Source: Candidatus Syntropharchaeum caldarium (GTDB taxonomy: Archaea; Halobacteriota; Syntropharchaeia; Syntropharchaeales; Syntropharchaeaceae). Taken from it: a stretch of DNA of 32,000 nt. The first letter of the stretch is position 1. Each line of letters begins with the position of its first letter. Positions 3,892-27,264 of the stretch are shown here, piece by piece. The notes below the pieces were generated by a model. That model was not told the DNA's origin. It made no database searches and saw only the letters and a list, made by a program, of their open reading frames with translations. A program made the position numbers and the translations under genes. Where the stretch lies: assembly GCA_001766815.1 (NCBI GenBank), contig LYOS01000002.1, forward strand, positions 150,001 through 182,000. The letters run 5' to 3'.

Positions 3892-5217
3892 TCACAGTAC
3901 TGGAAGCAACTTCTTTATCTCAAATGGCGTAATCTGAACCCTGTATTCATCCCATTCGATATGCTTGCTCACGATGAAATTGTGAAATATGTGATCACCA
4001 AGCGTCTTTCTTACAAGCTCACTCTTCTCTGTGATATTTATCGCCTCAATGAGGCTTCCTGGAAGCGAATCAATCTCAAGCTTTTTCCGTTCTTCATCGG
4101 TAATATGATACAGATCCTGTTCCATCTGGGGAGGGAGTTCATACTTCTTTTCGATCCCTTCAAGTCCTGCTGCAAGCATCACTGAGAATGCGAGGTATGG
4201 ATTGCACGCAGGATCAGGGCTTCTATACTCAATCCTTGTAGCTTTTTCCTTGCCTGGTTTGTACATTGGAACTCTCACGAGGGTTGATCTGTTCCTTCGC
4301 GCCCATGAGATATAGACAGGTGCTTCATATCCTGGAACCAGCCGCTTGTATGAGTTCATCCACTGGTTTGTAATAGCCGTGATCTCCTTTGCATGATGAA
4401 GGAGGCCCGCGATGTAGTATCTGCATGTATCAGATAAACCCATCTCATCATCTGGATCAAAGAATACGTTCTTATCGCCTTTGAAGAGGGACTGATGTAC
4501 ATGCATACCTGATCCGTTCACACCAAAGATCGGTTTTGGCATGAACGTCGCATAAACCCCGTGCATCCGTGCGATCTCCTTTACGACCATTCTGTAGGTC
4601 ATGACATTGTCTGCCATCGTGAGTGCATCCATATATCTGAGATCGATCTCATGCTGGGAGGGTGCAACCTCATGATGACTGTACTCAACATATATCCCCA
4701 TCTCTTCAAGCGCAAGGATCGTATCTCTTCGCCAGTCAGATGCGGCATCAAGTGTTGTCAGATCAAAGTATCCACCTTCATCGAGTACCTCTGTTGTTAG
4801 TTCATCCTTGAAGTAGAAGTATTCAAGCTCGGGACCAACATACATTGTGTAACCCATCTCCTCCAGCCGCTGAAGATTTCGTTTCAGGGCGTATCTCGGA
4901 TCACCCTCATAAGGGGTTCCGTCTGGCTGAAGAATATCGCAGAACATCCGTCCAACTGCTTTATCCTTTGGTTTCCATGGTATCAACTGGAAGGTTGCAG
5001 GATCTGGCTTTGCGATCATGTCACTCTCATCTATCCTTGCAAACCCCTGTATGGATGATCCATCAAAGCCCATACCCTCTGCAAATGCACTTTCAAGTTC
5101 ATCCTTGTTTATCGCAAAGCTCTTTAGCTGCCCGAGAATATCAGTAAACCACATCTGGATAAACCGTACGTCAGTGGCTTCAATTATTTCAAAGACGTCA
5201 TCTACATTCGTCCCCAT
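3892..5217 (-). CDS. glnA: Glutamine synthetase type I
   Basis: 441 aa with FTDILG, MPKPIFGVNGSGMHVHQSLF and NSYKRLVPGYEAP..ISW..RNRS.LVRVP signatures. AGGAGA lies upstream of the ATG. Confidence 0.93.
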   Translation of the reverse strand: MGTNVDDVFEIIEATDVRFIQMWFTDILGQLKSFAINKDELESAFAEGMGFDGSSIQGFARIDESDMIAKPDPATFQLIPWKPKDKAVGRMFCDILQPDGTPYEGDPRYALKRNLQRLEEMGYTMYVGPELEYFYFKDELTTEVLDEGGYFDLTTLDAASDWRRDTILALEEMGIYVEYSHHEVAPSQHEIDLRYMDALTMADNVMTYRMVVKEIARMHGVYATFMPKPIFGVNGSGMHVHQSLFKGDKNVFFDPDDEMGLSDTCRYYIAGLLHHAKEITAITNQWMNSYKRLVPGYEAPVYISWARRNRSTLVRVPMYKPGKEKATRIEYRSPDPACNPYLAFSVMLAAGLEGIEKKYELPPQMEQDLYHITDEERKKLEIDSLPGSLIEAINITEKSELVRKTLGDHIFHNFIVSKHIEWDEYRVQITPFEIKKLLPVL

Positions 5218-5835: not shown

Positions 5836-7140
5836 GTGCAGGATATTTCGTTTTTTCTCCTGATATCGTCGATCTTCGCAGGCTATCTCCTCGGTGTAAT
5901 CTCTGGGCTGACACCTGGAATCCATACAAACAACTTCGCACTACTGCTCACCGCATCAACCCCTTTACTTCAGAGGTTTGGAATTGAGCCAATATACATC
6001 GTTCTCATAATCCTGACAAACTCGATAACCCATACTTTCCTTGATATAATTCCCTCCGTCTTTCTTGGAGCACCTGAGGCCGATACAGCTTTAGTACTCT
6101 TACCTGGACACAGATTGATGCTTGATGGAAGAGGAGAGGAGGCAATAAGACTGTCAGCCTTTGGAAGTGCAGCTTCGATCATTCTTTCACTCGTATTTCT
6201 CTTTCCGCTCTTTTTTCTCTTCAAACATTTTTATACACAGATCTACAACCAGATGGGTATAATCCTGATCTGGATCGTCTTTGTGATGATACTGACAGAG
6301 AGGGGTGAGAGAATTGAGGGGCAGGGATCGCTTGCCGCATGGAAATACAGGACGTACGCTTCTGCAATTTTCATCCTTTCAGGCATTCTTGGTATCCTTG
6401 CATTTGAACGTGAGGTGCTCATCGATCCGCTCATTGGATTTCTCGACACATCCGTGCTTTTCCCACTCTTTTCAGGTCTTTTCGGTGCCTCGATGTTGAT
6501 AATAAGTATCCTGACGCATACAGCAATTCCACCACAGAAAAAGGGCGGTTTCAAACTCCCTGCATGGCAGATCATCAGGGGAACGACTAGTGGAACACTC
6601 GCGGGTGGGATCGTTGCTTTTCTGCCTGGCATCTCATCAGCCATCGCAACTCTTCTTGCGCGGCTCACAATAAGGGATGATACAGGGCGAGGATCGAATG
6701 AAGAGTTTATCCTGTCACTCTCAGGTGTTAACACCGCAAATGCACTTTTTGCTATCATCGCACTCTATACGATCAACAGACCAAGAAGCGGTGCAATGGT
6801 TGCAATCGAAGGCGCAATCGATCCAGCTTTATGGACACCTGATACAATAAACCTTTTTCTGCTGATAATACTACTCGTATCACTCCTCTCTTATGTTACA
6901 ACAATACAGCTGGGCAGACTCGTTCCTGCATTGATCCAGCAGGTAAATTACACCCATCTCTCGCTTATGATACTTCTCCTGCTCTCGGTGCTTGTCCTCA
7001 TATTTTCTGGTATATTTGGTCTCATCCTTTTTATTACAGCAACTGTGATCGGGATGATACCGGCATTTGCAGGTGTCAGAAGAATTCATTCGATGGGAGT
7101 TCTGCTTTTACCGCTCATTCTCTATTTCAACGGGTTTTAA
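5836..7140 (+). CDS. Polytopic membrane protein, TctA-like / DUF112 family (COG1784-type)
   Basis: 434 aa starting at GTG, with about 10-12 hydrophobic segments and an LTPGIHTNN motif near the N-terminus. The family call is from memory of archaeal TctA-like proteins. Confidence 0.5.
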   Translation: MQDISFFLLISSIFAGYLLGVISGLTPGIHTNNFALLLTASTPLLQRFGIEPIYIVLIILTNSITHTFLDIIPSVFLGAPEADTALVLLPGHRLMLDGRGEEAIRLSAFGSAASIILSLVFLFPLFFLFKHFYTQIYNQMGIILIWIVFVMILTERGERIEGQGSLAAWKYRTYASAIFILSGILGILAFEREVLIDPLIGFLDTSVLFPLFSGLFGASMLIISILTHTAIPPQKKGGFKLPAWQIIRGTTSGTLAGGIVAFLPGISSAIATLLARLTIRDDTGRGSNEEFILSLSGVNTANALFAIIALYTINRPRSGAMVAIEGAIDPALWTPDTINLFLLIILLVSLLSYVTTIQLGRLVPALIQQVNYTHLSLMILLLLSVLVLIFSGIFGLILFITATVIGMIPAFAGVRRIHSMGVLLLPLILYFNGF

Positions 7141-17931: not shown

Positions 17932-18699
17932 ATGCCAACGATTACACTCTCAATGAAGCAATCAATCACGGTTCCACTTGAAGCAGAAAATATAACTCCA
18001 GATAACCTTGCGGGCAAATCAGTTGATGAGATAAAGGCTGTTACAGTCTATCACGGAAACAGTGAGGCTGTAATCGGTGATTTTTTTGATGTAACCGTCG
18101 AGGGGTCGGGTAATGATCCTGCATCGACCGAGATCATCATGAAAGGGGATCTTACCCGTGTCAAGCGTATCGGTGAAGGCATGAGTGCTGGCTCGATTGT
18201 AATAGAGGGCGACTGTGATATGCACTGCGGTGCGTTCATGCGTGGCGGAAAGATCACTGTTAAGGGTAACGCTGATGCCTGGGCAGGGCGTGAGATGAGA
18301 GGCGGTGAGATCATCATCGAGGGTGATGCCGGCAATTACGTCGGTTCAGCGTATCGGGGTGAACTTACAGGCATGCGTGGCGGAAAGATCGTGGTTGAGG
18401 GGAACGCGGGTGATTACCTCGGTGAGCACCTCGGCGGCGGTGAGATCATCGTCAAAGGTAATACAGGCGTACTTCCAGGGCTTTCCATGACCGGTGGAAA
18501 GATCATAATCGAAGGAACTGCCACAATGCCAGGCGGTGAGATGACAAAAGGTGAGATCATCGTCAAAGGTGGTATCATCGATATGCTTCCAGGATTTAAG
18601 TTTGAGGGCGAGGAAGAGGTTGATGGTGCAACTTTAAAGAAATACACTGGCGATCTCGCAGTACGCGGTACAGGAAAGGGGATACTCCTTGTGGGGTAG
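17932..18699 (+). CDS. fwdC: Formylmethanofuran dehydrogenase subunit C
   Basis: 255 aa with reiterated G-x-G beta-helix repeats (GGKITVKGNA, GGEIIIEGDAG, GGKIVVEGNAG, GGEIIVKGNTG, GGKIIIEG). Confidence 0.9.
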   Translation: MPTITLSMKQSITVPLEAENITPDNLAGKSVDEIKAVTVYHGNSEAVIGDFFDVTVEGSGNDPASTEIIMKGDLTRVKRIGEGMSAGSIVIEGDCDMHCGAFMRGGKITVKGNADAWAGREMRGGEIIIEGDAGNYVGSAYRGELTGMRGGKIVVEGNAGDYLGEHLGGGEIIVKGNTGVLPGLSMTGGKIIIEGTATMPGGEMTKGEIIVKGGIIDMLPGFKFEGEEEVDGATLKKYTGDLAVRGTGKGILLVG

Positions 18700-18738: not shown

Positions 18739-18882
18739 ATGCCGAGAAAGAGTGTTAAGTGTCCAGTCTGTGGAAAGAAGGTCGATGTATTTGGTGCTGA
18801 TTCAAACTACATAAAACATGTGCAGAATGGAAGTGGTACGTTCTACCATGAGAAGTGTTTTGAGAAGCGGGAGATAGATTAA
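18739..18882 (+). CDS. Small zinc-ribbon-like protein (47 aa), absent from the ORF track
   Basis: ATG at 18739, TAA at 18880-18882. The translation is MPRKSVKCPVCGKKVDVFGADSNYIKHVQNGSGTFYHEKCFEKREID, with CPxC plus H..C as four potential zinc ligands. Composition is host-like. Confidence 0.4.
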   Translation: MPRKSVKCPVCGKKVDVFGADSNYIKHVQNGSGTFYHEKCFEKREID

Positions 18883-18930: not shown

Positions 18931-19060
18931 AGCCAGGTTGTGCTATTTGGGGGGAGATACGTGTGGGGGTAAGATAAGGAGAATTTGGGGCGCCGATGGC
19001 GGTCGTTTTGCAACTCCTTTGTCTACTTCGAAGTATGTTATATGAAATTGCTTGGCGGAT
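18931..19060 (+). repeat. Island boundary repeat copy D (GC-rich, hairpin-forming; 3' core GTATGTTATATGAAAT)
   Basis: This copy shares GCAACTCCTTT...GTATGTTATATGAAAT with copy B; the 16-mer at 19033-19048 is identical to 23774-23789. An internal imperfect hairpin pairs GTAAGATAAGGAG with CTCCTTTGTCTAC. The 5' limit is uncertain. Confidence 0.5.
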
Positions 19061-19103
19061 GAACAATAAATTTAAAAGAAACAAAAGCTTATAGGTGAAA
19101 GTA

Positions 19104-20520
19104 ATGAAAACGCTTTATGATACAAAACAAGCAACTTTGTTTGGTGAAAAGACTCTCGAACAAGAATACTTAGAGTTAATTAATGGTGAGTATGGCTTCT
19201 CTAAACAAATTGACATTTTAGATAAAATTGATTGGGATTTTAAAGATTTTAGTACTCAATATCTCACACACAAATTTCACTCATATCCTGCAAGATTTAT
19301 ACCTCAAATCCCTTTAACTTTTATTAAAATATTTACTAGAGAGGGAGATACGGTTTTAGATCCTATGTGTGGTTGTGGAACAACGCTGGTTGAAGCATTT
19401 CTAAACAATAGAAATTCCATCGGAAATGACTTTAATCCTCTTGCAGTTCTGATAAGTAAAGTAAAAACTACATTAATTGATGAGACTGAGTTTAGATATT
19501 TGAATAAAAAATTGGCTGTTATGAAACAAACGATATTTAGACTTAGATTATCGAAGAATCGAAAATAGAGTAGAGAATCTACCAAACAGAAAGATTAGTA
19601 AAATATTTAACAGAGTAATAATCTCAAAATTAGAGTCAATCCGTGAAACTTTATTGGAAGTTAAAGAAGAAGGACATGATAACTTATACGATTTTGGAAG
19701 AGTAGCCTTATCATCAACAATTTGGTCACTGGTAGAGAACGGAGATGGAATAGATGTTGATGATTTATTTTTGAAGAGAGTAAAATCTATGAGATGCGAA
19801 TTAAATAAAATGGCTAAAGTTGTCAAAAAGGTCCCTAATGTAAGATTAATAAATGGTGATGCAAGAAAATTAGAAGTTGAAACTAATTCAATAGATCTCA
19901 TAGTAACGTCCCCGCCATATGTAAATGCTTTAGATTACTATAGAGCACATATGTACAATATGCTTTGGTTAGGTATGGATTTTGATTTATTCAGAAAGCA
20001 CGAAATTGGAGGGCATTCTCATTTTATAATCAACAGATTTAGATTGCTTTCTGAGTACTTAGGAGATATGCTCCGTTCAATGATAGAGATGAATAGAGTT
20101 TTGAAAAAAGATAAGTTATGTGTAATTGTGGTAGGTAATTCTAGTTTAGAATATGAATTAATTGAAAGTCACAAATTTTTTGCGGCAATGGCTAAGCATA
20201 TAGGATTTGAACCAATAAAAACAATTTTTAGGAATATAGATAAAACAAAGAAATATACAAGTGCAGACATTGGGAAAATTGATGATGAGTATATATTAAT
20301 AATGCAAAAAAATAATGATACAGAAGTTACAGCTGATGATGATAATTTCATTGCAGAAATCGTAAAACAACAAATGAATGGATTTAGAGAACAAATAAAG
20401 AGAATTCAGGGCACTTCAATTAGGGGAAGAAAGCCTACAAAAGAGAGATTGTTAAAAAATATTGATAAGATAAGTGAAGCAATAGAAACAATACCTCAAG
20501 ACATCAAGATAAAGGGATGA
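19104..20520 (+). pseudogene. DNA methyltransferase (N4-cytosine/N6-adenine class, SPPY motif IV) interrupted by one frameshift
   Basis: ORF 19095/19104-19568 carries FHSYPARFIP and the AdoMet motif LDPMCGCGTT. ORF 19654-20520 carries IDLIVTSPPYVNALDY. The second frame is actually open from 25 codons further up (19525) and overlaps the first. The switch from frame 0 to frame 1 must therefore lie within 19525-19565. Confidence 0.65.
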
Positions 20521-20524
20521 AAAT

Positions 20525-21250
20525 ATGAAAAAATTGATTAGTAAAATAGTCCATTCTATTTTAACTGGCGAGGATTATCGTACTTATGTCCTCGCAACGA
20601 TAAATAAAAGGTTTATTGACAAAGTGCAGGAGTTAACCACTGAGATTTTTGAATACAAAAGAAAAGGAGATGTTTGGCTAGAAAAACTATTGGATGACAC
20701 CTATGAAAAGAAGGGAAAAGAGAATAAATTTAAACTCTTATGGTTTGGCGGATTAAATGATAAGACTGTAAAAAATATGACGGGGGGAACATCTAAAAAG
20801 GAAGTGTGTTTGGATCTGGGAAAAAAGAATATCGAAGCATTTAGATTATTGTTGAGTGAGATTGAAAGTAGCGAGAATCTTTATCAAATAAGGATAATAA
20901 TTAAGAAAGATACCGAGCAAGTTGAGTTGGACGAAATAGAAAGTATAATTTTTGTTAATACTATCTCAGCAATGAAACTCACTATACAAGGAGGAGCTTG
21001 GAGCGAAGTGGGAAAGCAAACCGAAAAAAGCTTACTATTTACTATATTTCAATTGCTTAAAATTCCAGAAGAGGACTATGTTTTGATATTTGATGAGATG
21101 AAGAAAAAAGATTTAGTAGGCAATAGAGAAATTGATGCCATAATTTTTAATAGAGATAAAGAACCCCTGACTGTTGAATTGAAACTACTAGGAATAGGGA
21201 ACCCTGAGATTGGGGATGAAGCACTTGCTAGAAAAGTAGATTTGTTTTTA
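20525..21250 (+). pseudogene. 5' fragment (242 codons) of a ~399-aa PD-(D/E)xK-like protein, candidate restriction endonuclease partner, interrupted by IS630
   Basis: The gene starts 5 nt after the methyltransferase. EIDAIIFNRDKEPLTVELK fits a D...ExK nuclease core. The reading frame runs straight into the IS end, and its TAG stop (21251-21253) is supplied by the IS terminus. Confidence 0.5.
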
Positions 21251-21296
21251 TAGTCTCCTGCAAAACTTTATCTACTATCCCATCTCATTCCCTCCT

Positions 21297-21956
21297 GTGA
21301 GGGGAGAACGAATATCAATCAGGAAGTTTGAAGAGGTTGGGTCACTGTTAAAGAGCGAGAAGGATCCAGTGGTGAAGCAAAAACTCTCTTTTCTCCTGTT
21401 TGCAGGAGAAGATTGTCTGTATTTTGAAAGAGCTGTTGAGGCGACCGGTATCGATATTACAACTGGCTACACATGGATAAGGATGTGGAATGATCTGGGA
21501 TACGAAGGGCTTCTTTCAAGCCCAAATAAAGGAGGTAGACCTCCCAAGCTCACTGACGAAGATCTCGAAGATCTACGGAATATTCTGGAATCTAAGGATT
21601 ACTGGACGACAAAAGAGGTAACAGTGCTCATCAAAGAGGTCTTCATGAAGAAACTATCAGAAGATCAGGTTAGACGCATTTTGAGGGATAAGCTGGGGAT
21701 GAGACTATCAAAGCCATATCAACATGACTATAGAAGACCAGATAACGCCGAAGAGATCTTGAAAGATCGAGTGGAAGCAACTTTGAGTGAGCTTGAAACG
21801 AAAGGATACAAGAGGGAAGAAATAGCAATCGGGTTTGTAGATGAGAGTTCTCCTCAAAATACTGCCAATACGGTTAGGGTCTGGAGTTTTGGTAAGCCGC
21901 ATATAAAAAAACACCACAAGGATGAGATCCAATGCGATGGGGTTCTATCCGATTAG
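21297..21956 (+). CDS. IS630-family transposase, N-terminal part (HTH domains and first catalytic Asp)
   Basis: 219 aa starting at GTG, with GGRPPKLT and wHTH segments, then IGFVDESSPQNT (first D). It ends shortly after an A7 run at 21905-21911. Confidence 0.8.
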   Translation: MRGERISIRKFEEVGSLLKSEKDPVVKQKLSFLLFAGEDCLYFERAVEATGIDITTGYTWIRMWNDLGYEGLLSSPNKGGRPPKLTDEDLEDLRNILESKDYWTTKEVTVLIKEVFMKKLSEDQVRRILRDKLGMRLSKPYQHDYRRPDNAEEILKDRVEATLSELETKGYKREEIAIGFVDESSPQNTANTVRVWSFGKPHIKKHHKDEIQCDGVLSD

Positions 21957-22332
21957 AGGAGAAGAGGTGATAATTTTTCCTGAGAATTCAAAGATAGAGA
22001 GCTTCATTGACTTTTTGAGGGCGATACGGGCGGTTAATGATGATTACAAAGCGATTATCGTGGTACTCGATAACTTCAGCACGCACGTATCGAATAGGGT
22101 GAAAAAAGAGGCCGAGCAGCTCGGGATATATCTCGTTTACCTCCCACCATACTCGCCCGATCTCAATCCGATCGAGTTTGTATGGAAGAGCATCAAAAGA
22201 GTCATCTCGATTCTTTTTGTGGATAACGTAGAGGTTCTGAGGAGGATAATCGAAAGAACATTCAGTAGGCTTGCAGAGAGCTTATCATTTGCTAAGTCGT
22301 GGATAGAAAAATTCATCCCATCGTGGATTTAG
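21922..22332 (+). CDS. IS630-family transposase, C-terminal DDE part (frame +1 relative to the N-terminal part)
   Basis: VVLDNFSTHVS (second D) and LPPYSPDLNPIEFVWKSIK (E) give the DD..E spacing typical of IS630/Tc1. The frame is open from 21907, inside the A7 run. The stop lies within the right inverted repeat. Confidence 0.8.
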   Translation: MRSNAMGFYPIRGEEVIIFPENSKIESFIDFLRAIRAVNDDYKAIIVVLDNFSTHVSNRVKKEAEQLGIYLVYLPPYSPDLNPIEFVWKSIKRVISILFVDNVEVLRRIIERTFSRLAESLSFAKSWIEKFIPSWI

Positions 22333-22349
22333 TTTTGCGGGGGACTATA

Positions 22350-22823
22350 ATTAGAAAAAACATAAAATTTACAAAAGCAGAATCTCCTGATTTTACTATT
22401 CATACAGAAAACAAGAATATTTTTATAGAATGTGGAAGTGCTCACTTATCTAAACCAAAACTTGGCGATATTAAATATAAAATATACTCAGTAATTAATA
22501 AAAAATCGAGCAAACCATATTGTGATCCCACTACTGCCTTGTTTATTGACATTACAAATATCTACTACAACAGCTTGATAAATGAAATTTTGGTAGAAAG
22601 AGACGAAATAAGAGAAGATGTTAAAAATGCTTTGGAACATACACAATTCGGAAATGTCATTCTGTTTGCCTATATTCTAAATAAAGATTTAAATAGATTT
22701 GAATCTGTCTATATTCGAATAGACAATAAAAATACAGAGGAAACACTATTGAATTTTCTTAACGATGGTTATCCATTCAGTGAACATACAGTTTATAATT
22801 TTGCAATCCCTTCAGATAGTTAA
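22350..22823 (+). pseudogene. 3' fragment (157 codons) of the IS-interrupted ~399-aa gene
   Basis: This ORF has no start codon of its own outside the IS; the listed GTG at 22299 lies inside the IS. Removing 21251-22349 (IS plus one TA) joins ...KVDLFL to IRKNIKFTKAESPDF... in frame. Confidence 0.5.
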
Positions 22824-22837
22824 GGTGGAGGTAAAAT

Positions 22838-22953
22838 GGCATTGTTAGGCTTTCGCACAACAGCGGATAAAAGGCTTCGCTACGCCTTGCCCAAATTGCC
22901 TTCGGCAACTTCTTTTATCCGCAAAACGTTAAGTGAAATGCCCGCCATTGCCC
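22838..22953 (+). repeat. Island boundary repeat copy A (long imperfect hairpin with AAC and GTT boxes)
   Basis: Outer arms GGCATTGTTAGGCTTTCGCAC (22838-22858) and GTGAAATGCCCGCCATTGCC (22933-22952) pair with bulges. A perfect 11-bp inner stem pairs GCGGATAAAAG (22863-22873) with CTTTTATCCGC (22912-22922). The apical part contains TTGCC-TTC-GGCAA. The boxes are GCACAAC (22855-22861) and GTTAAGT (22928-22934). Confidence 0.6.
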
Positions 22954-23003
22954 TGAAAAGATTTAAAACCGAGAATGAAATAAAAAATAATAGGTGGCAA
23001 AAA

Positions 23004-23300
23004 ATGAAAAAATCACTTGATGAGATAAAAGAAATTATCGAAAAACACAAGGAAGAGCTTAAAGAAAAGTATGGTGTTAAAGAAATTGGTATCTTCGGCT
23101 CTTTTGTGAGGGGAGAAGCGAAAGAGGGCAGTGATGTTGACATACTGGTTGAATTCGAAAAACCAATAGGATTCTTTAAATTTCTCGAACTGGAGGAATA
23201 TCTGAGCAATTTGATAGGTGGAAAAGTAGACCTTGTATCTAAAAAAGCACTTAAGCCACACATTGGAAAATATATTCTTGAAGAGGTTGTAACAGTATGA
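23004..23300 (+). CDS. Minimal nucleotidyltransferase (MNT), antitoxin of a HEPN/MNT module
   Basis: 98 aa from the ATG at 23004, which is preceded by TAGGTGG. It carries GIFGSFVRGEAKEGSDVDILVEF (GS...DxD). The listed 56-codon N-terminal extension merely translates repeat copy A. Confidence 0.85.
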   Translation: MKKSLDEIKEIIEKHKEELKEKYGVKEIGIFGSFVRGEAKEGSDVDILVEFEKPIGFFKFLELEEYLSNLIGGKVDLVSKKALKPHIGKYILEEVVTV

Positions 23301-23641
23301 AAAGAACATACAGGGATTACATACTGGACATCTTGTCATCTATTCAGGAAATTGAAGAATTTGTTGAGGGTATGGACTTTGAAGAGTTCGTAAAGGATAG
23401 AAAAACTGTAAATGCTGTTATTAGAAGTCTGGAAGTGATGGGCGAGGCTGTGAAGAAAATTCCTTTAGAAATCAGGGAGAAATACCAAGAAATTCCGTGG
23501 AAATACATTGCAAGTATGAGAGATAAATTGATTCATGAATATCACGGCGTTGATTTAGAAATTGTATGGGAAGTCATAGAAAAGGAAATTCCACCTCTCA
23601 AACCCAAATTTGAAAAAATATTGGAGGAGTTGAAGGGGTGA
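23297..23641 (+). CDS. HEPN domain protein (DUF86-type), toxin of the HEPN/MNT module
   Basis: 114 aa with an ATGA overlap with the MNT gene. The RDKLIHEYHGVD segment carries the Rx4H HEPN motif. Confidence 0.85.
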   Translation: MKRTYRDYILDILSSIQEIEEFVEGMDFEEFVKDRKTVNAVIRSLEVMGEAVKKIPLEIREKYQEIPWKYIASMRDKLIHEYHGVDLEIVWEVIEKEIPPLKPKFEKILEELKG

Positions 23642-23800
23642 AGTTAAAAGGCGACAGCGAGCACTCTGCCATGCTTCGCACCTTGCCCTTCGAGTCACTT
23701 AACAGCGTGTATCTGGCTTCGGCTTACGCTCCACCCAAAGGGTGCGCTCCGCAACCTCTTCGCATACCCCGCCGTATGTTATATGAAATGGCGTCTTTAA
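23642..23800 (+). repeat. Island boundary repeat copy B
   Basis: Shared blocks are GCTTCGCACCTTGCCC (23673-23688), CAACCTCTTCGCATACCCCGCCG (23752-23774) and the 16-mer at 23774-23789. The boxes are ACTTAAC (23697-23703) and GTTATAT (23778-23784). The end arms AAAGGCGAC (23647-23655) and GGCGTCTTT (23790-23798) are complementary. Small internal hairpins are AGCGT...ACGCT and CACCC-AAA-GGGTG. Confidence 0.6.
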
Positions 23801-23819
23801 GAACATGGAGGTATAAGAA

Positions 23820-24593
23820 ATGGGAAGAAAAATCTTGAAGAACAAGCCTCTTGTAGAGGCGATTTTTGAGCTGCGATGGGAACTACAGGAGCCAGCACAA
23901 GGGATGAAAATAGATCCACATTATAAAATACTGATTGGTAGGATGTATGACAGGGTAAAAGATGAATACCCCTTCCATGAGCAGTTACCTACCGCAACTA
24001 TGCCAGACGAAATCGCAGGATATGTTGTCCAGCACAGATTTCGGAAAGATAAGGACAAGTGGCCTCTTATTCAAATAGGCCCTGGAATTGTTACTTTAAA
24101 CGATACTGAAGGATATATATGGGAAGATTTCGAAAATAGGGCATACTATCTCCTGGATACACTTTTTGAAGCGTATCCAGATGCGGAGAACAATTTGAAA
24201 CCTAATGGGTTGTTGTTAAGGTATATTGATGCCGTTGATTTTAATTATGAAAAAGAGGATATATTCACTTTCTTGAAAGATAAATTGAAAGTAACCATAC
24301 AAATGCATGGAGAACTTTTTGATGAGACTGGCGTTAGTAATTTACCTTTAGGTTTTGATTTAAAATTTTCTTTTCCCTCTGCAAAGCCTAATGGAGTAGT
24401 TCACTTGCGATTTGTCCGGGGAAAGAGAAAAGATATAGATGCCTTAATATGGGAAACCCATGTTCAATCAATTGGTGACGATGCTCCTAAAGTAAAGGAT
24501 GAAATTAGGAGGTGGGTAGTAAATGCACATGAATTGACAGATGATTGGTTTTTTAAGATGATTGAGGGAGAGTTGTTAAGGAGGTTTGAATGA
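23820..24593 (+). CDS. Uncharacterized protein, TIGR04255-like (sporadically distributed family)
   Basis: 257 aa with GGAGGT 8 nt upstream of the ATG. The N-terminus KPLVEAIFELRWEL and the ~260-aa length match my recollection of the TIGR04255 family. This was not checked against any database. Confidence 0.5.
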   Translation: MGRKILKNKPLVEAIFELRWELQEPAQGMKIDPHYKILIGRMYDRVKDEYPFHEQLPTATMPDEIAGYVVQHRFRKDKDKWPLIQIGPGIVTLNDTEGYIWEDFENRAYYLLDTLFEAYPDAENNLKPNGLLLRYIDAVDFNYEKEDIFTFLKDKLKVTIQMHGELFDETGVSNLPLGFDLKFSFPSAKPNGVVHLRFVRGKRKDIDALIWETHVQSIGDDAPKVKDEIRRWVVNAHELTDDWFFKMIEGELLRRFE

Positions 24594-24985
24594 TGTATCA
24601 ACCAACATTGCGAGATGTTACGTACCAAGGTTATCCAATTCAATATTCCTCCGCCGTAAGTTCGGAAATAGAGGAGATAGACAAAAATGACATATGGGAT
24701 AATTTATTATCTACTTTAATTCGGGAGAAACGGTTTAGAAAGCCTTCTTTATATCATAATTTGATATTTTTACTTGAAAATGATTGGTCTTCAGTTTGGC
24801 CACGTTTTGGGATAAAAAATGAAACATCGCTGATTGAAGAAAGATTCGAAAAAAGAATTCCAGAAGATATGCTGGAATTCGATATTATTGTACGGATGCC
24901 ACCGATGAAAGAGTGGGTTGCACGGTTAAAAGTGAGAAATGTAGAAAAAGCAATGCCACACATTGTAGAACCGGAGGAGATCTGA
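24590..24985 (+). CDS. Hypothetical protein (131 aa), translationally coupled to the upstream gene
   Basis: ATGA overlap with the upstream stop, and AAGGAGGT 5-12 nt upstream. I recognise no motif. Confidence 0.5.
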   Translation: MMYQPTLRDVTYQGYPIQYSSAVSSEIEEIDKNDIWDNLLSTLIREKRFRKPSLYHNLIFLLENDWSSVWPRFGIKNETSLIEERFEKRIPEDMLEFDIIVRMPPMKEWVARLKVRNVEKAMPHIVEPEEI

Positions 24986-24987
24986 CG

Positions 24988-25506
24988 ATGAAAGAATATC
25001 TTTGGTATGAGACTGTAAATGGAAAAGATGACTTGATGCAGGGAGATTTTATTAAGGAGTGTCCTATAGTAATTCCGCCTTCAGAAATATCCGACGAAGT
25101 AGAGGTTCGTATTATAAACTATGATGTAGTTACTATGAGCCAGTCATGTGATCTCATCCAACGAAAACTTGATTTAGTTTTAGTTTGTCCGATTTGGCCT
25201 CTAAGTGAATTTGAGAAGAGAAGTGACTTTTTCAAAAGTAGAAAAGGAAAAGAAGCACTAAGACAAGGGAATGTCCATGGATACCACTTATTAAACAAAT
25301 GTGAAATAGATGGATTCGAAACGGAGTATTTAGTTGTTGATTTCCGTAGTGTTTATAGTGTCCCTTTTGATTTCCTTGTAGAATTATCCCAAAAGAGGGG
25401 TACAAGGCTGCGTCTACTCCCACCTTACAGAGAACATTTATCTCAAGCTTTTGCAAGATTCTTCATGAGAGTTGGATTGCCTGTTGATATACCTCCATTT
25501 AAATGA
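24988..25506 (+). CDS. Hypothetical protein (172 aa), third gene of the operon
   Basis: The ATG at 24988 lies 2 nt after the upstream stop, with GGAGGAG upstream; the listed start at 24913 is an overlap artefact. QGDFI...VVTMSQSCDL....LDLVLVCPIWP loosely recalls the GD...VVxSxx....xVVAPIT pattern of PemK/MazF-like SH3 toxins. This resemblance is very tentative. Confidence 0.45.
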   Translation: MKEYLWYETVNGKDDLMQGDFIKECPIVIPPSEISDEVEVRIINYDVVTMSQSCDLIQRKLDLVLVCPIWPLSEFEKRSDFFKSRKGKEALRQGNVHGYHLLNKCEIDGFETEYLVVDFRSVYSVPFDFLVELSQKRGTRLRLLPPYREHLSQAFARFFMRVGLPVDIPPFK

Positions 25507-25512
25507 TGGATA

Positions 25513-25706
25513 TGAAAGACGCCACCGCCACTTCATATAACAGAGCATATACGCTATGGGCTAACGCCCTTGCCCTTCGGGTCATTGCCCCCTTCGGTCG
25601 CAACGTCGTATATGCTAGAAACGATAAGCAAAATTCGCACCACCTATGGCGGACGCTTCACAACCCCTTCACATACCCCACCGCCCGTTACCTCCAATTA
25701 CCTGCT
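25513..25706 (+). repeat. Island boundary repeat copy C
   Basis: The 5' arm is AAAGACGCCA (25515-25524), then CCGCCAC, then TTCATATAACA (25532-42). Next come CGCCCTTGCCCTTCGG (25566-25580) with a tandem TTGCCC(CC)TTCGG subrepeat, and CAACCCCTTCACATACCCCACCG (25661-25683). The boxes are ATATAAC (25535-25541) and GTTACCT (25687-25693). Confidence 0.6.
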
Positions 25707-25721
25707 ATGAGATGATCTAAA

Positions 25722-26108
25722 ATGGAAATATCAGGGTACTCGGAAAGAGGAGTAATTAACTCACTATTCCATGAGATAAATTTTTCTCAGAATAATTTAC
25801 AGCTTCTCAATGATTTTTTATCTTTGGTTTCTTTTCCATATCGGACAGTCGTTTTTCAAATATCTGATGCTAAGATATTGATTGAGCAGTCTTTTTCTGA
25901 TTTCGGGGATGCAGATGCGGTGATTCTGGTTAATAATCAAGGTGATAAAGAAGCTGTTTTTATTGAAGCAAAGGTTAAGACTTCTCAAAAACCTTATTGG
26001 AGCATCCTGGAGGAGTTTGAAGATTTCAAGATTGGGATATTAGAAATTGGGGTTACCTTTCCTGGGCTCAGGTTAAAGAATTCTGCGAAGAATATAGTCT
26101 GGGAGTAA
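25722..26108 (+). CDS. PD-(D/E)xK nuclease-like protein, probably C-terminally truncated
   Basis: 128 aa. GDADAVILVNNQGDKEAVFIEAKVK fits D...ExK. The last ~20 codons (from about 26050) lose the character of the rest, and the ORF ends at the island edge. Confidence 0.45.
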   Translation: MEISGYSERGVINSLFHEINFSQNNLQLLNDFLSLVSFPYRTVVFQISDAKILIEQSFSDFGDADAVILVNNQGDKEAVFIEAKVKTSQKPYWSILEEFEDFKIGILEIGVTFPGLRLKNSAKNIVWE

Positions 26109-26175
26109 CATTAAAAACTTTTGAATGGAATGATGGACAAATAGAGAGGTGAGGTAATTCCGTCGTTGATCAGCT

Positions 26176-27264
26176 CTACCCCCTCAACACCCTCTCCACA
26201 ACCTCAAGCACCATCAGGACATCCTTCTCACGGATGTTTCCCATCGTACCTATCCTGAAGATCTTGCCCTTCAACCGCTCCTGTCCGCCTGCAATCACAA
26301 CTCCCATCTTCTTAGCACGACTTCTCAGCTCATCGGCACTGATCCCCTCGGGCATCTTTATCGCTGTGACGGTATTTGAATATCTGCTAACATCATTGAG
26401 ACGCGGAAAGAGTTCAAGCCCCCATTCCTTAACAGCATCCCTCACCATTGAAGCTAAGTGTGTGTGCCGCCTGATCCTGGCATCAACTCCTTCTTCCATC
26501 ACAATATTGATCGCTTCATCCAGCGCATAAAAGAGCGGTAACGCAGGTGTGTATGGTGTCTGTCCCTTATCTGCTGACTTCTTATACGCCTTCAGATCCA
26601 TGTAAAGCGGTGGAGATTCAACCATTCTATCCATTGCGCGTTCACTAACTGAGATCATTGAAAGACCAGGAGGCATACCAAGACACTTCTGTGACCCGAG
26701 AACCGCGATATCAACGCCCCATTCATCAACTCTGACATCTATCCCTCCGATCGAGGTGACACCGTCCATTATAAAGAGTAGATCGTTTTCTCTTGCAATC
26801 TCTGCAATCTCAGGCGCTGGATTGGTGATCCCAGCAGAAGTCTCGTTGTGAACCATCGCTACTGCCTTCAGATCTTTCTCTTCTTCAACTATTCTTCTCA
26901 CATCGTCAGGTTCGATCGGGTCTCCCCATTCATATTCAAGCGGGACGGGGTCGCCATAACGTTTTGCGATCTCATGAAATCGATCCCCAAACTTTCCGTT
27001 TACGATCGTGAGTATCTTTTCATTTTTTATAATATTTGAGATCGCCGCTTCCATTGCGCACGATCCAGAACCACTTAGCACGAAAACATCGTTTTCTGTC
27101 TGCATAATCTCTTTCAGTCCCTTCTCAATCCGTCCAAAGATCTCTTTGAACTCTTCTCCTCTGTGATTGATCATCGGACGGGACATCGCACGCAAAATGC
27201 GTGGTGCAACAGGAACCGGTCCTGGCAACATTATAATCTCATCTTCAAGGTCCATCTTATACAC
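26176..27264 (-). CDS. Class V aminotransferase (serine-pyruvate / alanine-glyoxylate / archaeal phosphoserine aminotransferase type)
   Basis: 362 aa with LPGPVPV N-terminus, GSGSCAMEAA and the PLP-lysine context GSQKCLGMPPGLS. Confidence 0.85.
   Translation of the reverse strand: MYKMDLEDEIIMLPGPVPVAPRILRAMSRPMINHRGEEFKEIFGRIEKGLKEIMQTENDVFVLSGSGSCAMEAAISNIIKNEKILTIVNGKFGDRFHEIAKRYGDPVPLEYEWGDPIEPDDVRRIVEEEKDLKAVAMVHNETSAGITNPAPEIAEIARENDLLFIMDGVTSIGGIDVRVDEWGVDIAVLGSQKCLGMPPGLSMISVSERAMDRMVESPPLYMDLKAYKKSADKGQTPYTPALPLFYALDEAINIVMEEGVDARIRRHTHLASMVRDAVKEWGLELFPRLNDVSRYSNTVTAIKMPEGISADELRSRAKKMGVVIAGGQERLKGKIFRIGTMGNIREKDVLMVLEVVERVLRG

Follow-up and report, generated by a model that had tools for sequence, protein, structure and literature searches.

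A GC-poor island with structured intergenic repeats

The 32,000-nucleotide window analysed here (assembly GCA_001766815.1, contig LYOS01000002.1, positions 150,001 to 182,000) belongs to the core chromosome of a methanogen-like archaeon, Candidatus (Ca.) Syntrophoarchaeum caldarius, and carries hemB, glnA, ftsZ, trpC, pyrBI, tRNA-Leu, fwdDBAC and the genes of a class-V aminotransferase, cbiZ and RNase J. Embedded in it, from position 18973 to about 26100, lies an island of ~7 kb with a GC content of 25–37%, compared with 45–55% in the flanks. The genes on either side are core archaeal ones, the borders being a small Zn-ribbon ORF that follows fwdC (orf47; 18739–18882) and the aminotransferase gene (26176–27255, − strand). 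Structured repeats punctuate this island, and we consider it quite likely that the whole is a decayed integron-type cassette array that has no integrase of its own, i.e. a cluster of attC sites lacking an integrase (CALIN).

Two proteins of the island have exact or almost exact matches in SCAL_000723 and SCAL_000729 of Ca. S. caldarius, both of which are encoded on a 410,801-bp contig, and a second Syntrophoarchaeum metagenome-assembled genome (MAG) has a left flank that is 97% identical to that of the window. An earlier note, made from the sequence of the window alone, had pointed to four intergenic segments of raised GC content. They do indeed differ from the genes between them (0.41–0.51 versus 0.25–0.37 GC), and it is these segments, called A to D from left to right, that hold the sites described below.

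Complete and truncated attC-type sites

The four segments align on GCAACyyCTT...GTTAnnTGAAAT, and a repeat search recovered a 42-nt repeat common to A and C (family D9, 76%). Together with the non-random spacing of the pattern in other genomes (see below), this bears out the shared nucleotide blocks of the earlier note. A covariance model, R1, built from 42 cross-phylum copies with site B among its seeds, matches the + strand of the island over its full length at three places, B, C and D1. The seed member B (22848–22939, +; 99.2 bits) is a complete attC-type site composed of R″ GCACAAC (22855–22861), L″ (22863–22873), L′ (22912–22922) and R′ GTTAAGT (22928–22934), and is 80–93% identical to copies across dozens of phyla. 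Site C (23690–23789, +; 27.1 bits, E 2e-4) is complete as well, albeit diverged, with R″ ACTTAAC at 23697–23703 and R′ GTTATAT at 23778–23784. Complete site D1 (25528–25634, +; 25.5 bits, E 5e-4) begins with R″ ATATAAC at 25535–25541; its R′ has degenerated to GATAAGC (25623–25629), giving it a GAT core instead of the GTT of sites B and C, which conform to the box layout. The L stem of D1 deviates from the others yet remains complementary (25544–25553 / 25607–25616; AGCATATACG / CGTATATGCT), and the site as a whole is 91% identical to one in a Nitrosotalea MAG. All three complete sites recognised by this family-specific model lie on one strand, with spacings of 842 and 1838 nt.

The remaining two elements, A and D2, are half-sites. 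Element A (18973–19052, +) starts with a degenerate GATAAGG box and ends with R′ GTTATAT (19037–19043) followed by GAAAT; it has no match to the full-site model R1, and its sequence can be aligned to D2 as well as to the 3′ half of site C. Its homologue D2 (25623–25702, +) likewise begins with GATAAG and carries R′ GTTACCT at 25687–25693. Because a profile made from A, D2 and the 3′ half of C matches 3′ halves only of family sites elsewhere, A and D2 are, as far as alignment can tell, 5′-truncated sites. Two other identities for them, ORF-less mini-cassettes or attI remnants, were set aside in favour of truncation on the strength of the profile; the window contains no attI-like motif.

This dissection modifies the earlier picture in several respects. 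The three AAC boxes lie where they had been placed, as do the GTT boxes of sites B and C, but the third GTT box, at 25687–25693, is part of half-site D2 and not the partner of the D1 inverse core. Accordingly, 25513–25706 does not form a single unit, comprising instead complete D1 and half-site D2, and of the proposed copy at 18931–19060 the GTT box stands whereas the profile recognises no more than a 3′ half-site from 18973. Nor does the repeat occur at every module boundary: no site was found at the right island end (26109–26175) or between the restriction endonuclease gene and the truncated ORF at 22350. Rfam scans, both with gathering thresholds and at E≤10, returned only a tRNA and a chance DUF805b match and left the repeats unmatched, and site B had no match in a phage collection.

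IntegronFinder defines a CALIN by two or more attC sites, found with an attC covariance model and separated by less than 4 kb, without an adjacent integrase. Neither Pfam searches of all long ORFs nor tblastn with IntI1 revealed a tyrosine recombinase in the 32 kb, in agreement with the earlier statement that the window has no integrase, and the only recombinase present is the transposase of an IS630-family insertion sequence (IS). Since both a tyrosine recombinase and an attI-like motif are missing from the 32 kb, the array is a CALIN by layout.

An integron-type footprint

Integron crossover takes place at G|TT, whereby the last six bases of R′ stay at the head of the following cassette, so that every cassette opens with the complement of the inverse core belonging to it. 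In the island, GTTAAGTGA at site B is the exact reverse complement of TCACTTAAC at site C, the B-to-C match extending over 9 nt, and GTTATATGAAATGGCG of site C is complementary to CGCCACTTCATATAAC of D1 at 15 of 16 positions. Both testable cassettes of the window are therefore perfect in box complementarity (2/2), and comparisons within the same site give mismatches. The single exception concerns TTATAT of site A and GCACAAC of site B, a mismatch that is accounted for by the loss of the intervening site and gene start in an IS-associated deletion (see below).

The same relationship holds outside the window. In 22 of 46 non-window neighbour pairs, R′ of one site is the reverse complement of R″ of the next across the four variable bases; shuffling leads one to expect 4.5 ± 1.9 such pairs, and none of 20,000 shuffles reached 22. 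Comparisons of R′ and R″ within the same site were perfect in only 16 of 108 cases. As these four bases differ between cassettes and pair within a cassette, selection must act on R″/R′ pairing, that is, on the folded form of the site.

In the favoured reading, a cassette would begin with the TT of a GTTnnnn box, contain between one and three genes and close with a folded site of its own (nnnnAAC, stem, branched centre, stem, G). If the array works as integrons do, a trans-acting tyrosine recombinase would bind the hairpin formed by one strand and cut at G|TT, and cassettes would be excised as circles and inserted beside other such sites.

A site family shared between bacteria and archaea

The pattern GCAACYYCTT-N13-17-GTTANNTGAAAT occurs at 82 places in GTDB genomes. 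At 62 of these the spacing is exactly N13, compared with three to eight places for each other spacing, which argues for a genuine repeat rather than chance. About 45 of the 82 places share the whole unit of ~92 nt, nnnnAAC-A-GCGGATAAAAG-(hairpin)-CCAAA-TTGCCTTCGGCAA-CTT-CTTTTATCCGC-AAAAC-GTTnnnn-GAAAT, and at many loci the sites form same-strand arrays with a spacing of 0.2–4 kb. Bacterial hosts include Atribacteria, Patescibacteria, Omnitrophota, Chloroflexota and Bacteroidota; archaeal hosts include Altarchaeum, Asgard archaea, Thaumarchaeota, Hadarchaeota, ANME-1, Methanosarcinales and Syntrophoarchaeum.

The R″/L″/L′/R′ anatomy of the sites is supported by covariation. In an alignment of 100 family members drawn from 53 sources, pairing is found in 85% of the pair cells, as opposed to 25–45% when the partners are slid; this alignment was fitted to the model and therefore flatters the structure, although a MAFFT alignment of the 42 seeds points the same way. 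Pairing in the L stem reaches 92%, and 10 of its 11 pairs show compensatory changes; a second inner hairpin has such changes at all five of its pairs, and AAC/GTT is nearly invariant and 97.7% paired. The consensus site has a continuous 11-bp L stem without a bulge, an asymmetric internal loop with 1 nt in its 5′ and 5 nt in its 3′ strand, and two conserved inner hairpins. A side observation concerns two hybrid sites (L031, 704–811; L016, 207–299) that combine the 5′ arm of one variant (AGACGCATATCTG) with the 3′ arm of another (CTTTTATTCGC). With arms stemming from different variants, their L stem is unable to pair, and they suggest that exchange also occurs inside the conserved centre of the sites, besides G|TT.

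A clinical class 1 integron on the Klebsiella pneumoniae plasmid NZ_CP044036.1 contains one member of the family (46.5 bits; 4996–5095 of the extracted locus, L177), which forms a cassette boundary between aac(6′)-Ib7 and ereB and is 1.6 kb away from an annotated intI1; after ereB, at ~6490–6530 of the same locus, a short stretch is similar to the 5′ half of a variant site. IntI1 has, moreover, been found experimentally to recombine archaeal attCs (Ghaly et al., PMC9668308). Given these two facts, the members of the site family are functionally attCs, and the short recombinase described below does not have them to itself.

Cassette genes and decay of the proposed array

The cassette ORFs run in the same direction as the sites (+). 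The first cassette combines a DNA methyltransferase gene with a gene for a CfrBI-type type II restriction endonuclease (REase). The N4/N6 methyltransferase gene (19095–20520, +) is split into two frames, 19095–19568 and 19654–20520, both of which match PF01555 (N6_N4_Mtase); the REase ORF (20525–21253, +; PF09516 RE_CfrBI, E 1e-100; PADLOC REase_II) looks intact. Either this restriction–modification (RM) system is dead or its methylase is made as two pieces.

An IS630-family insertion sequence follows (21251–22347, +), with ends TAGTCTCCTGCAAAAC / GTTTTGCGGGGGACTA, TA on each flank and a transposase in two frames (21297–21956 and 21922–22332) that matches HTH_32 and DDE_3. On its left the element adjoins the end of the REase gene, and on its right a gene whose 5′ part the left flank does not contain. 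In the island version of a sister strain (L091, ~2033–2087), another copy of this IS end occupies a different TA, so this IS630 is or was active in the population.

The truncated gene on the right, SCAL_000723 (22350–22823, +), has no start codon and encodes the C-terminal 157 aa (60%) of a family of ~264 aa, i.e. it lacks ~100 N-terminal residues. Its 33 homologues measure 209–272 aa, mostly ~260–265, and most align over 94–100% of the query. At one related locus (L175), an intact 264-aa gene is 86% identical, and the alignment with the window starts exactly at the right end of IS630. There, the site behind the gene has R″ GCACAAC in common with B but a different R′, and the next gene is a different one too; the L stem of this site differs from that of B in a compensatory manner. 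Homology to L175 sets in where IS630 stops, and to the left of the element the REase gene comes to its end; a deletion associated with the IS therefore removed both the RM cassette's own site and the 5′ 320 nt of the next cassette.

Beyond site B, the cassette at 22929–23778 encodes an MNT/HEPN toxin–antitoxin (TA) pair (23004–23641, +), with MNT at 23004–23300 (PF01909) and HEPN/HepT at 23297–23641 (PF01934). The subsequent cassette (23779–25623) holds three genes within 23820–25506 (+), namely 23820–24593, whose product belongs to TIGR04255 (E 7e-40), orf131 (24590–24985) and orf172 (24988–25506); PADLOC gave no match for this cassette. A homologous three-gene cassette with 75% nucleotide identity is present in a Methanosarcinales MAG (L014), in the context of ABC-transporter and pyrD genes and bounded by family sites with the same TTATAT/ATATAAC boxes. 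Two cassettes of the window hence recur elsewhere as discrete units bounded by family sites, one at L014 and one at L175.

The last cassette gene, SCAL_000729 (25722–26108, +), is 3′-truncated and has no site after it. Its listed homologues are 70–223 aa long, many of them 201–223 aa, and it is mostly the first 80–83% (~105 residues) of the 128-aa ORF that aligns. Over 25722–26036, the product is 73–80% identical in amino acid sequence to proteins of Atribacteria and other sediment-bacterial contigs (P0155–P0160, P0183), a level that argues for recent cassette sharing across domains. The right end of the array falls between about 26040 and 26175, GC content rising at ~26.05 kb. Inside the truncated ORF, where homology to relatives stops, lies GTTACCT (26053–26059), identical to the R′ box of D2, and 100 nt beyond it AGGTAAT (26153–26159), one base off the complement AGGTAAC; the two may be traces of the original right-hand junction.

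With its half-sites, IS630-linked loss, truncated last gene, GTT-to-GAT core and split methylase, the window copy is a decaying relic. The IS-linked loss, the half-sites and the missing site after the last, truncated gene indicate that the array has eroded at both ends and in the middle.

A strain-variable locus

Sister strains that are 96–98% identical in the left flank (L004, L089–L093) diverge from the window at 18972|18973 or at 18989|18990, and the DNA beyond this breakpoint is entirely different; L089 has an hsdM-like gene there, and L093 has small Zn-ribbon ORFs. What follows fwdC-orf47 is thus a hot spot of variation between strains. In the conserved left flank, GTTGTGC (18937–18943) happens to be the exact reverse complement of the site B inverse core GCACAAC, and some sister strains have GTTATGC in its place. 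Its candidacy as the start of the first cassette was set aside, the IS630-linked deletion explaining the A/B mismatch, and the match is probably a coincidence. Further to the left, fwdC (18130–18573) contains families of 21–42-nt direct repeats, which are coding (GXGXG beta-helix turns) and unrelated to the array.

Recombinases linked to the site family

In the GTDB genomes, three arrays of the site family abut full-length recombinase genes (L044, L087 and L041); tblastn with IntI1 detected no canonical IntI in the ~80 GTDB loci with the site family. The conserved part of the three proteins comprises ~250–280 aa with intact catalytic motifs, and their overall type is that of an IntI/XerA-like protein of ~270 aa; those of L087 and L044 end in the IntI-like SPL / NPLD motif. 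When aligned to VchIntIA (2a3v), all three skip residues 181–246, with the same gap against IntI1, and hence are devoid of the IntI-specific additional domain (I2). The three recombinases and nine further array-linked relatives score 183–250 bits with NF040815 (recomb_XerA_Arch; cutoff 220) and 174–223 bits with TIGR02249 (integron integrase; cutoff 265). At the level of the family, therefore, the caveat of the earlier note that a XerA-type recombinase might be involved has turned out to be apt. The short recombinases also occur in bacterial MAGs; they belong to a very large family, mostly from Patescibacteria, which NCBI names ‘site-specific tyrosine recombinase/integron integrase’.

A scan of JGI metagenomes with the array-linked recombinases yielded 80 loci, 19 of which contain matches to R1. 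The 34 sites in these 19 loci are distributed as 30 upstream on the opposite strand, four downstream on the same strand and none otherwise, the prevailing arrangement being the divergent layout of classical integrons. Of the loci with at least 1 kb of upstream sequence, 13 of 36 have sites, and 12 of these 13 are among the closer recombinase relatives. In 17 of 20 platform loci, an exact 7-mer complementary to R″ of the first site is located between the recombinase gene and that site, at a distance of 75–160 nt from the gene in 16 of the 17 and preceded by conserved ttcGTATAnaAACnA; chance would produce such a 7-mer in a few percent of loci. This conserved junction, ttcGTATAnaAACnA|GTTnnnnGAAAT, is an attI in all but name, in that it has the position beside the recombinase gene and the G|TT joining of one. 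The IntI-specific domain near patch III, expected of the integrase in a complete integron platform, is missing from the array-linked recombinases of these related loci.

Several side observations concern these platforms. The attI-like regions of L095–L158, L041, L044, L137 and L145 include a nearly perfect palindrome (GTATACGAAAACAATTCGTATAC in L112, for instance) ahead of AAACnA|GTT; this arrangement is reminiscent of a double-stranded binding site of the dif type that immediately precedes the crossover point. Recombinases that are co-directional with the array (L044, 29–1090; L137, 252–1367) have an extra N-terminal region of ~90 aa with the motif ..G.RW.P..K.W..P, and the L137 platform lies directly after a tRNA gene.

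At the family level, the native platform in uncultured bacteria and archaea would consist of a ~270-aa recombinase without I2, an attI-like junction and an array. Judging from the related loci, we lean slightly towards the view that the site family natively belongs to such a domain-less integrase lineage. The broader proposition, to which we give an even chance, is that there is a separate and very widespread integron lineage, common among Patescibacteria and anaerobic sediment bacteria and also found in several archaeal phyla, which has an I2-less IntI/XerA-like integrase of ~270 aa and attCs without extrahelical bases that are conserved across domains.

Weighing the explanations

The integron-like, CALIN-type reading put forward in the earlier note is upheld by the covariation, the placement of sites on a single strand, the box complementarity, the recurring cassettes and the lack of a recombinase in the window. 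Several points nevertheless count against it or against the proposed native platform. Model R1 was derived from the same site family, and its 3′ part was set by the search pattern; sites C and D1 reach only 25–27 bits with it. Folding of each segment as single-stranded DNA, a check that the earlier note had suggested, was uninformative, as neither strand did better than shuffles (z −1.4 to +0.8). The left island edge, compared with six related contigs, reads GTAA|G or GGG|G and not G|TT, and exact-protein look-ups of the flanking genes, made in search of an empty site or right junction, found the right side in the same strain only. No recombination event, whether as a circular junction or as an empty site, was seen. 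The best 120 of 7995 short-recombinase relatives include no Syntrophoarchaeum member, and the family site beside a canonical intI1 as well as the activity of IntI1 on archaeal attCs mean that the sites are not reserved for a domain-less partner. Many hosts are, moreover, MAGs, and binning errors may underlie some of the phylum assignments; since several copies are on contigs of 100–500 kb, the spread across phyla is more than a binning artefact.

The last of these molecular points feed the alternative that the island is an ordinary CALIN of a canonical integron, with standard attCs whose partner IntI, complete with its domain, resides elsewhere or has been lost, the short recombinases being a side branch or housekeeping Xer proteins. 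The class 1 integron member 1.6 kb from intI1 and the recombination of archaeal attCs by IntI1, along with the commonness of archaeal CALINs (PMC9668308), speak for it. It has difficulty, however, with the ~80 GTDB loci in which no canonical IntI was detected, with the three array-adjacent recombinases that lack the domain and the metagenomic relatives that show the same pattern of profile matches, with the 30:4:0 layout of sites around these genes, and with an attI-like junction that matches the first cassette in 17 of 20 loci. We regard it as unlikely, if clearly the most serious of the alternatives.

Much less probable is a modular island of the Xer/dif type, akin to pdif modules or integrative mobile elements exploiting Xer (IMEX), in which host XerA would act on double-stranded dif-like sites and no hairpin would form. 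That the array-linked recombinases score above or close to the cutoff of the NCBIfam XerA model, that the site sequence is unusually conserved for an attC and that the attI-like region contains a dif-like palindrome (TATACGAA...TTCGTATA) would suit such an island. Yet sites of ~92 nt whose long stem is kept by compensatory changes do not, and the four variable bases that are complementary within a cassette make sense only if R″ and R′ pair; the sites of an array also share one orientation. Dimer resolution by XerA/dif, moreover, involves a single recombinase and one 28-bp dif, whereas the sites here are multiple and arrayed with cassettes, and assignment to XerA/dif is further weakened by NF040815 scores that scatter around the cutoff and by the occurrence of the recombinases in bacterial MAGs. 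Dispersed repeats—miniature inverted-repeat transposable elements (MITEs), repetitive extragenic palindromic (REP)-like elements, small RNA (sRNA) genes or terminators that pile up in the intergenic DNA of a defence island—are disfavoured and in our view hardly credible. The repeats are GC-richer, structured and intergenic, to be sure, and the island has defence-type genes and an IS, but no terminal inverted repeats or target duplications surround the copies, Rfam has no match for them, and they occupy one strand at cassette ends. The box-swapping footprint, the linkage to a recombinase gene and an attI-like junction, and the family member within a class 1 integron are equally foreign to such repeats. 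A decayed CALIN thus remains the reading that we favour for the window.

Relation to known systems

The window provides an example of a cultured-consortium alkane-(butane-)oxidising archaeon that carries a fossil cassette array between core methanogenesis-type genes. Its RM, MNT/HEPN and TIGR04255 cassettes also occur in bacteria such as Atribacteria and Caldisericia, which constitutes concrete evidence of gene traffic between domains. For the recombinases, it matters that an integron integrase is defined by the IntI-specific domain, which IntegronFinder also uses as its criterion of detection, so a large family of array- and attI-linked recombinases that lack it would escape current surveys; in complete bacterial genomes, recombinases near attC sites that lack intI_Cterm were stated to be ‘not IntI’ (Cury et al., PMC4889954). 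If the domain-less family is real, some of the surplus of ‘integrase-less’ arrays could be due to it, and the separate lineage may be behind many arrays classed as CALIN by current tools. We found no description of domain-less integron integrases or of Patescibacteria integrons in the literature searched, an absence that is no proof of novelty.

The window itself is a further example of the archaeal CALINs that are already known. Archaeal integrons and CALINs, mostly without an integrase, were described in MAGs in 2022 (Ghaly et al. 2022, Sci Adv, PMC9668308), and the window array shares with them arrays of attC-type sites and co-oriented short cassettes enriched in TA and RM genes, its RM and TA content matching that of the reported cassettes. 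In the same study, archaeal attCs were nearly identical across both domains, and one integron contig carried a marker gene closest to Syntrophoarchaeum. The supplement text contains no sequence matches to the present site family, and the archaeal IntIs of that study, six in all, are reported to have the IntI-specific domain, in contrast to the recombinases linked to our sites (PMC9668308). With sedentary integrons, the sites have in common the R″/R′ boxes, the G|TT crossover and the cassette-wise complementarity of core and inverse core (PMC4889954).

The Vibrio cholerae superintegron with its VCR attCs is similar in being a chromosomal array of highly similar sites with TA cassettes and differs in that the window array has no adjacent intI or attI. 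VCR-type sites are conserved within one genus, whereas those of the present family are conserved across phyla; likewise, the usual attC has an unpaired central spacer and extrahelical bases, which govern the choice of strand, whereas the family site has a perfect 11-bp L stem, a 1 × 5-nt loop and two inner hairpins. In the pdif modules of Acinetobacter plasmids, the sites are 28-bp, double-stranded and alternating in orientation, with no hairpin, polarity or dedicated recombinase gene. These modules share with the window array the principle of genes bounded by recombination sites of Xer-family enzymes.

Finally, CTX-phi attP offers a precedent for the combination proposed here, as XerCD, a Xer-like recombinase without I2, acts on a duplex-mimicking hairpin that has no extrahelical bases, and an I2-less Xer-like ancestor acting on such hairpins has been hypothesised as the origin of integrons (Escudero et al., PMC4792948). 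If true, the domain-less platform would be a natural system for studying hairpin recombination before or without the I2 helix and the descent of integrons from Xer-like ancestors (PMC4792948), and the separate lineage would represent the Xer-like ‘proto-integron’ state that has been postulated and not observed. The difference from CTX-phi is that the phage hijacks host XerCD at dif, whereas the site family would be served by a recombinase with its own attI-like site and a multi-cassette array.

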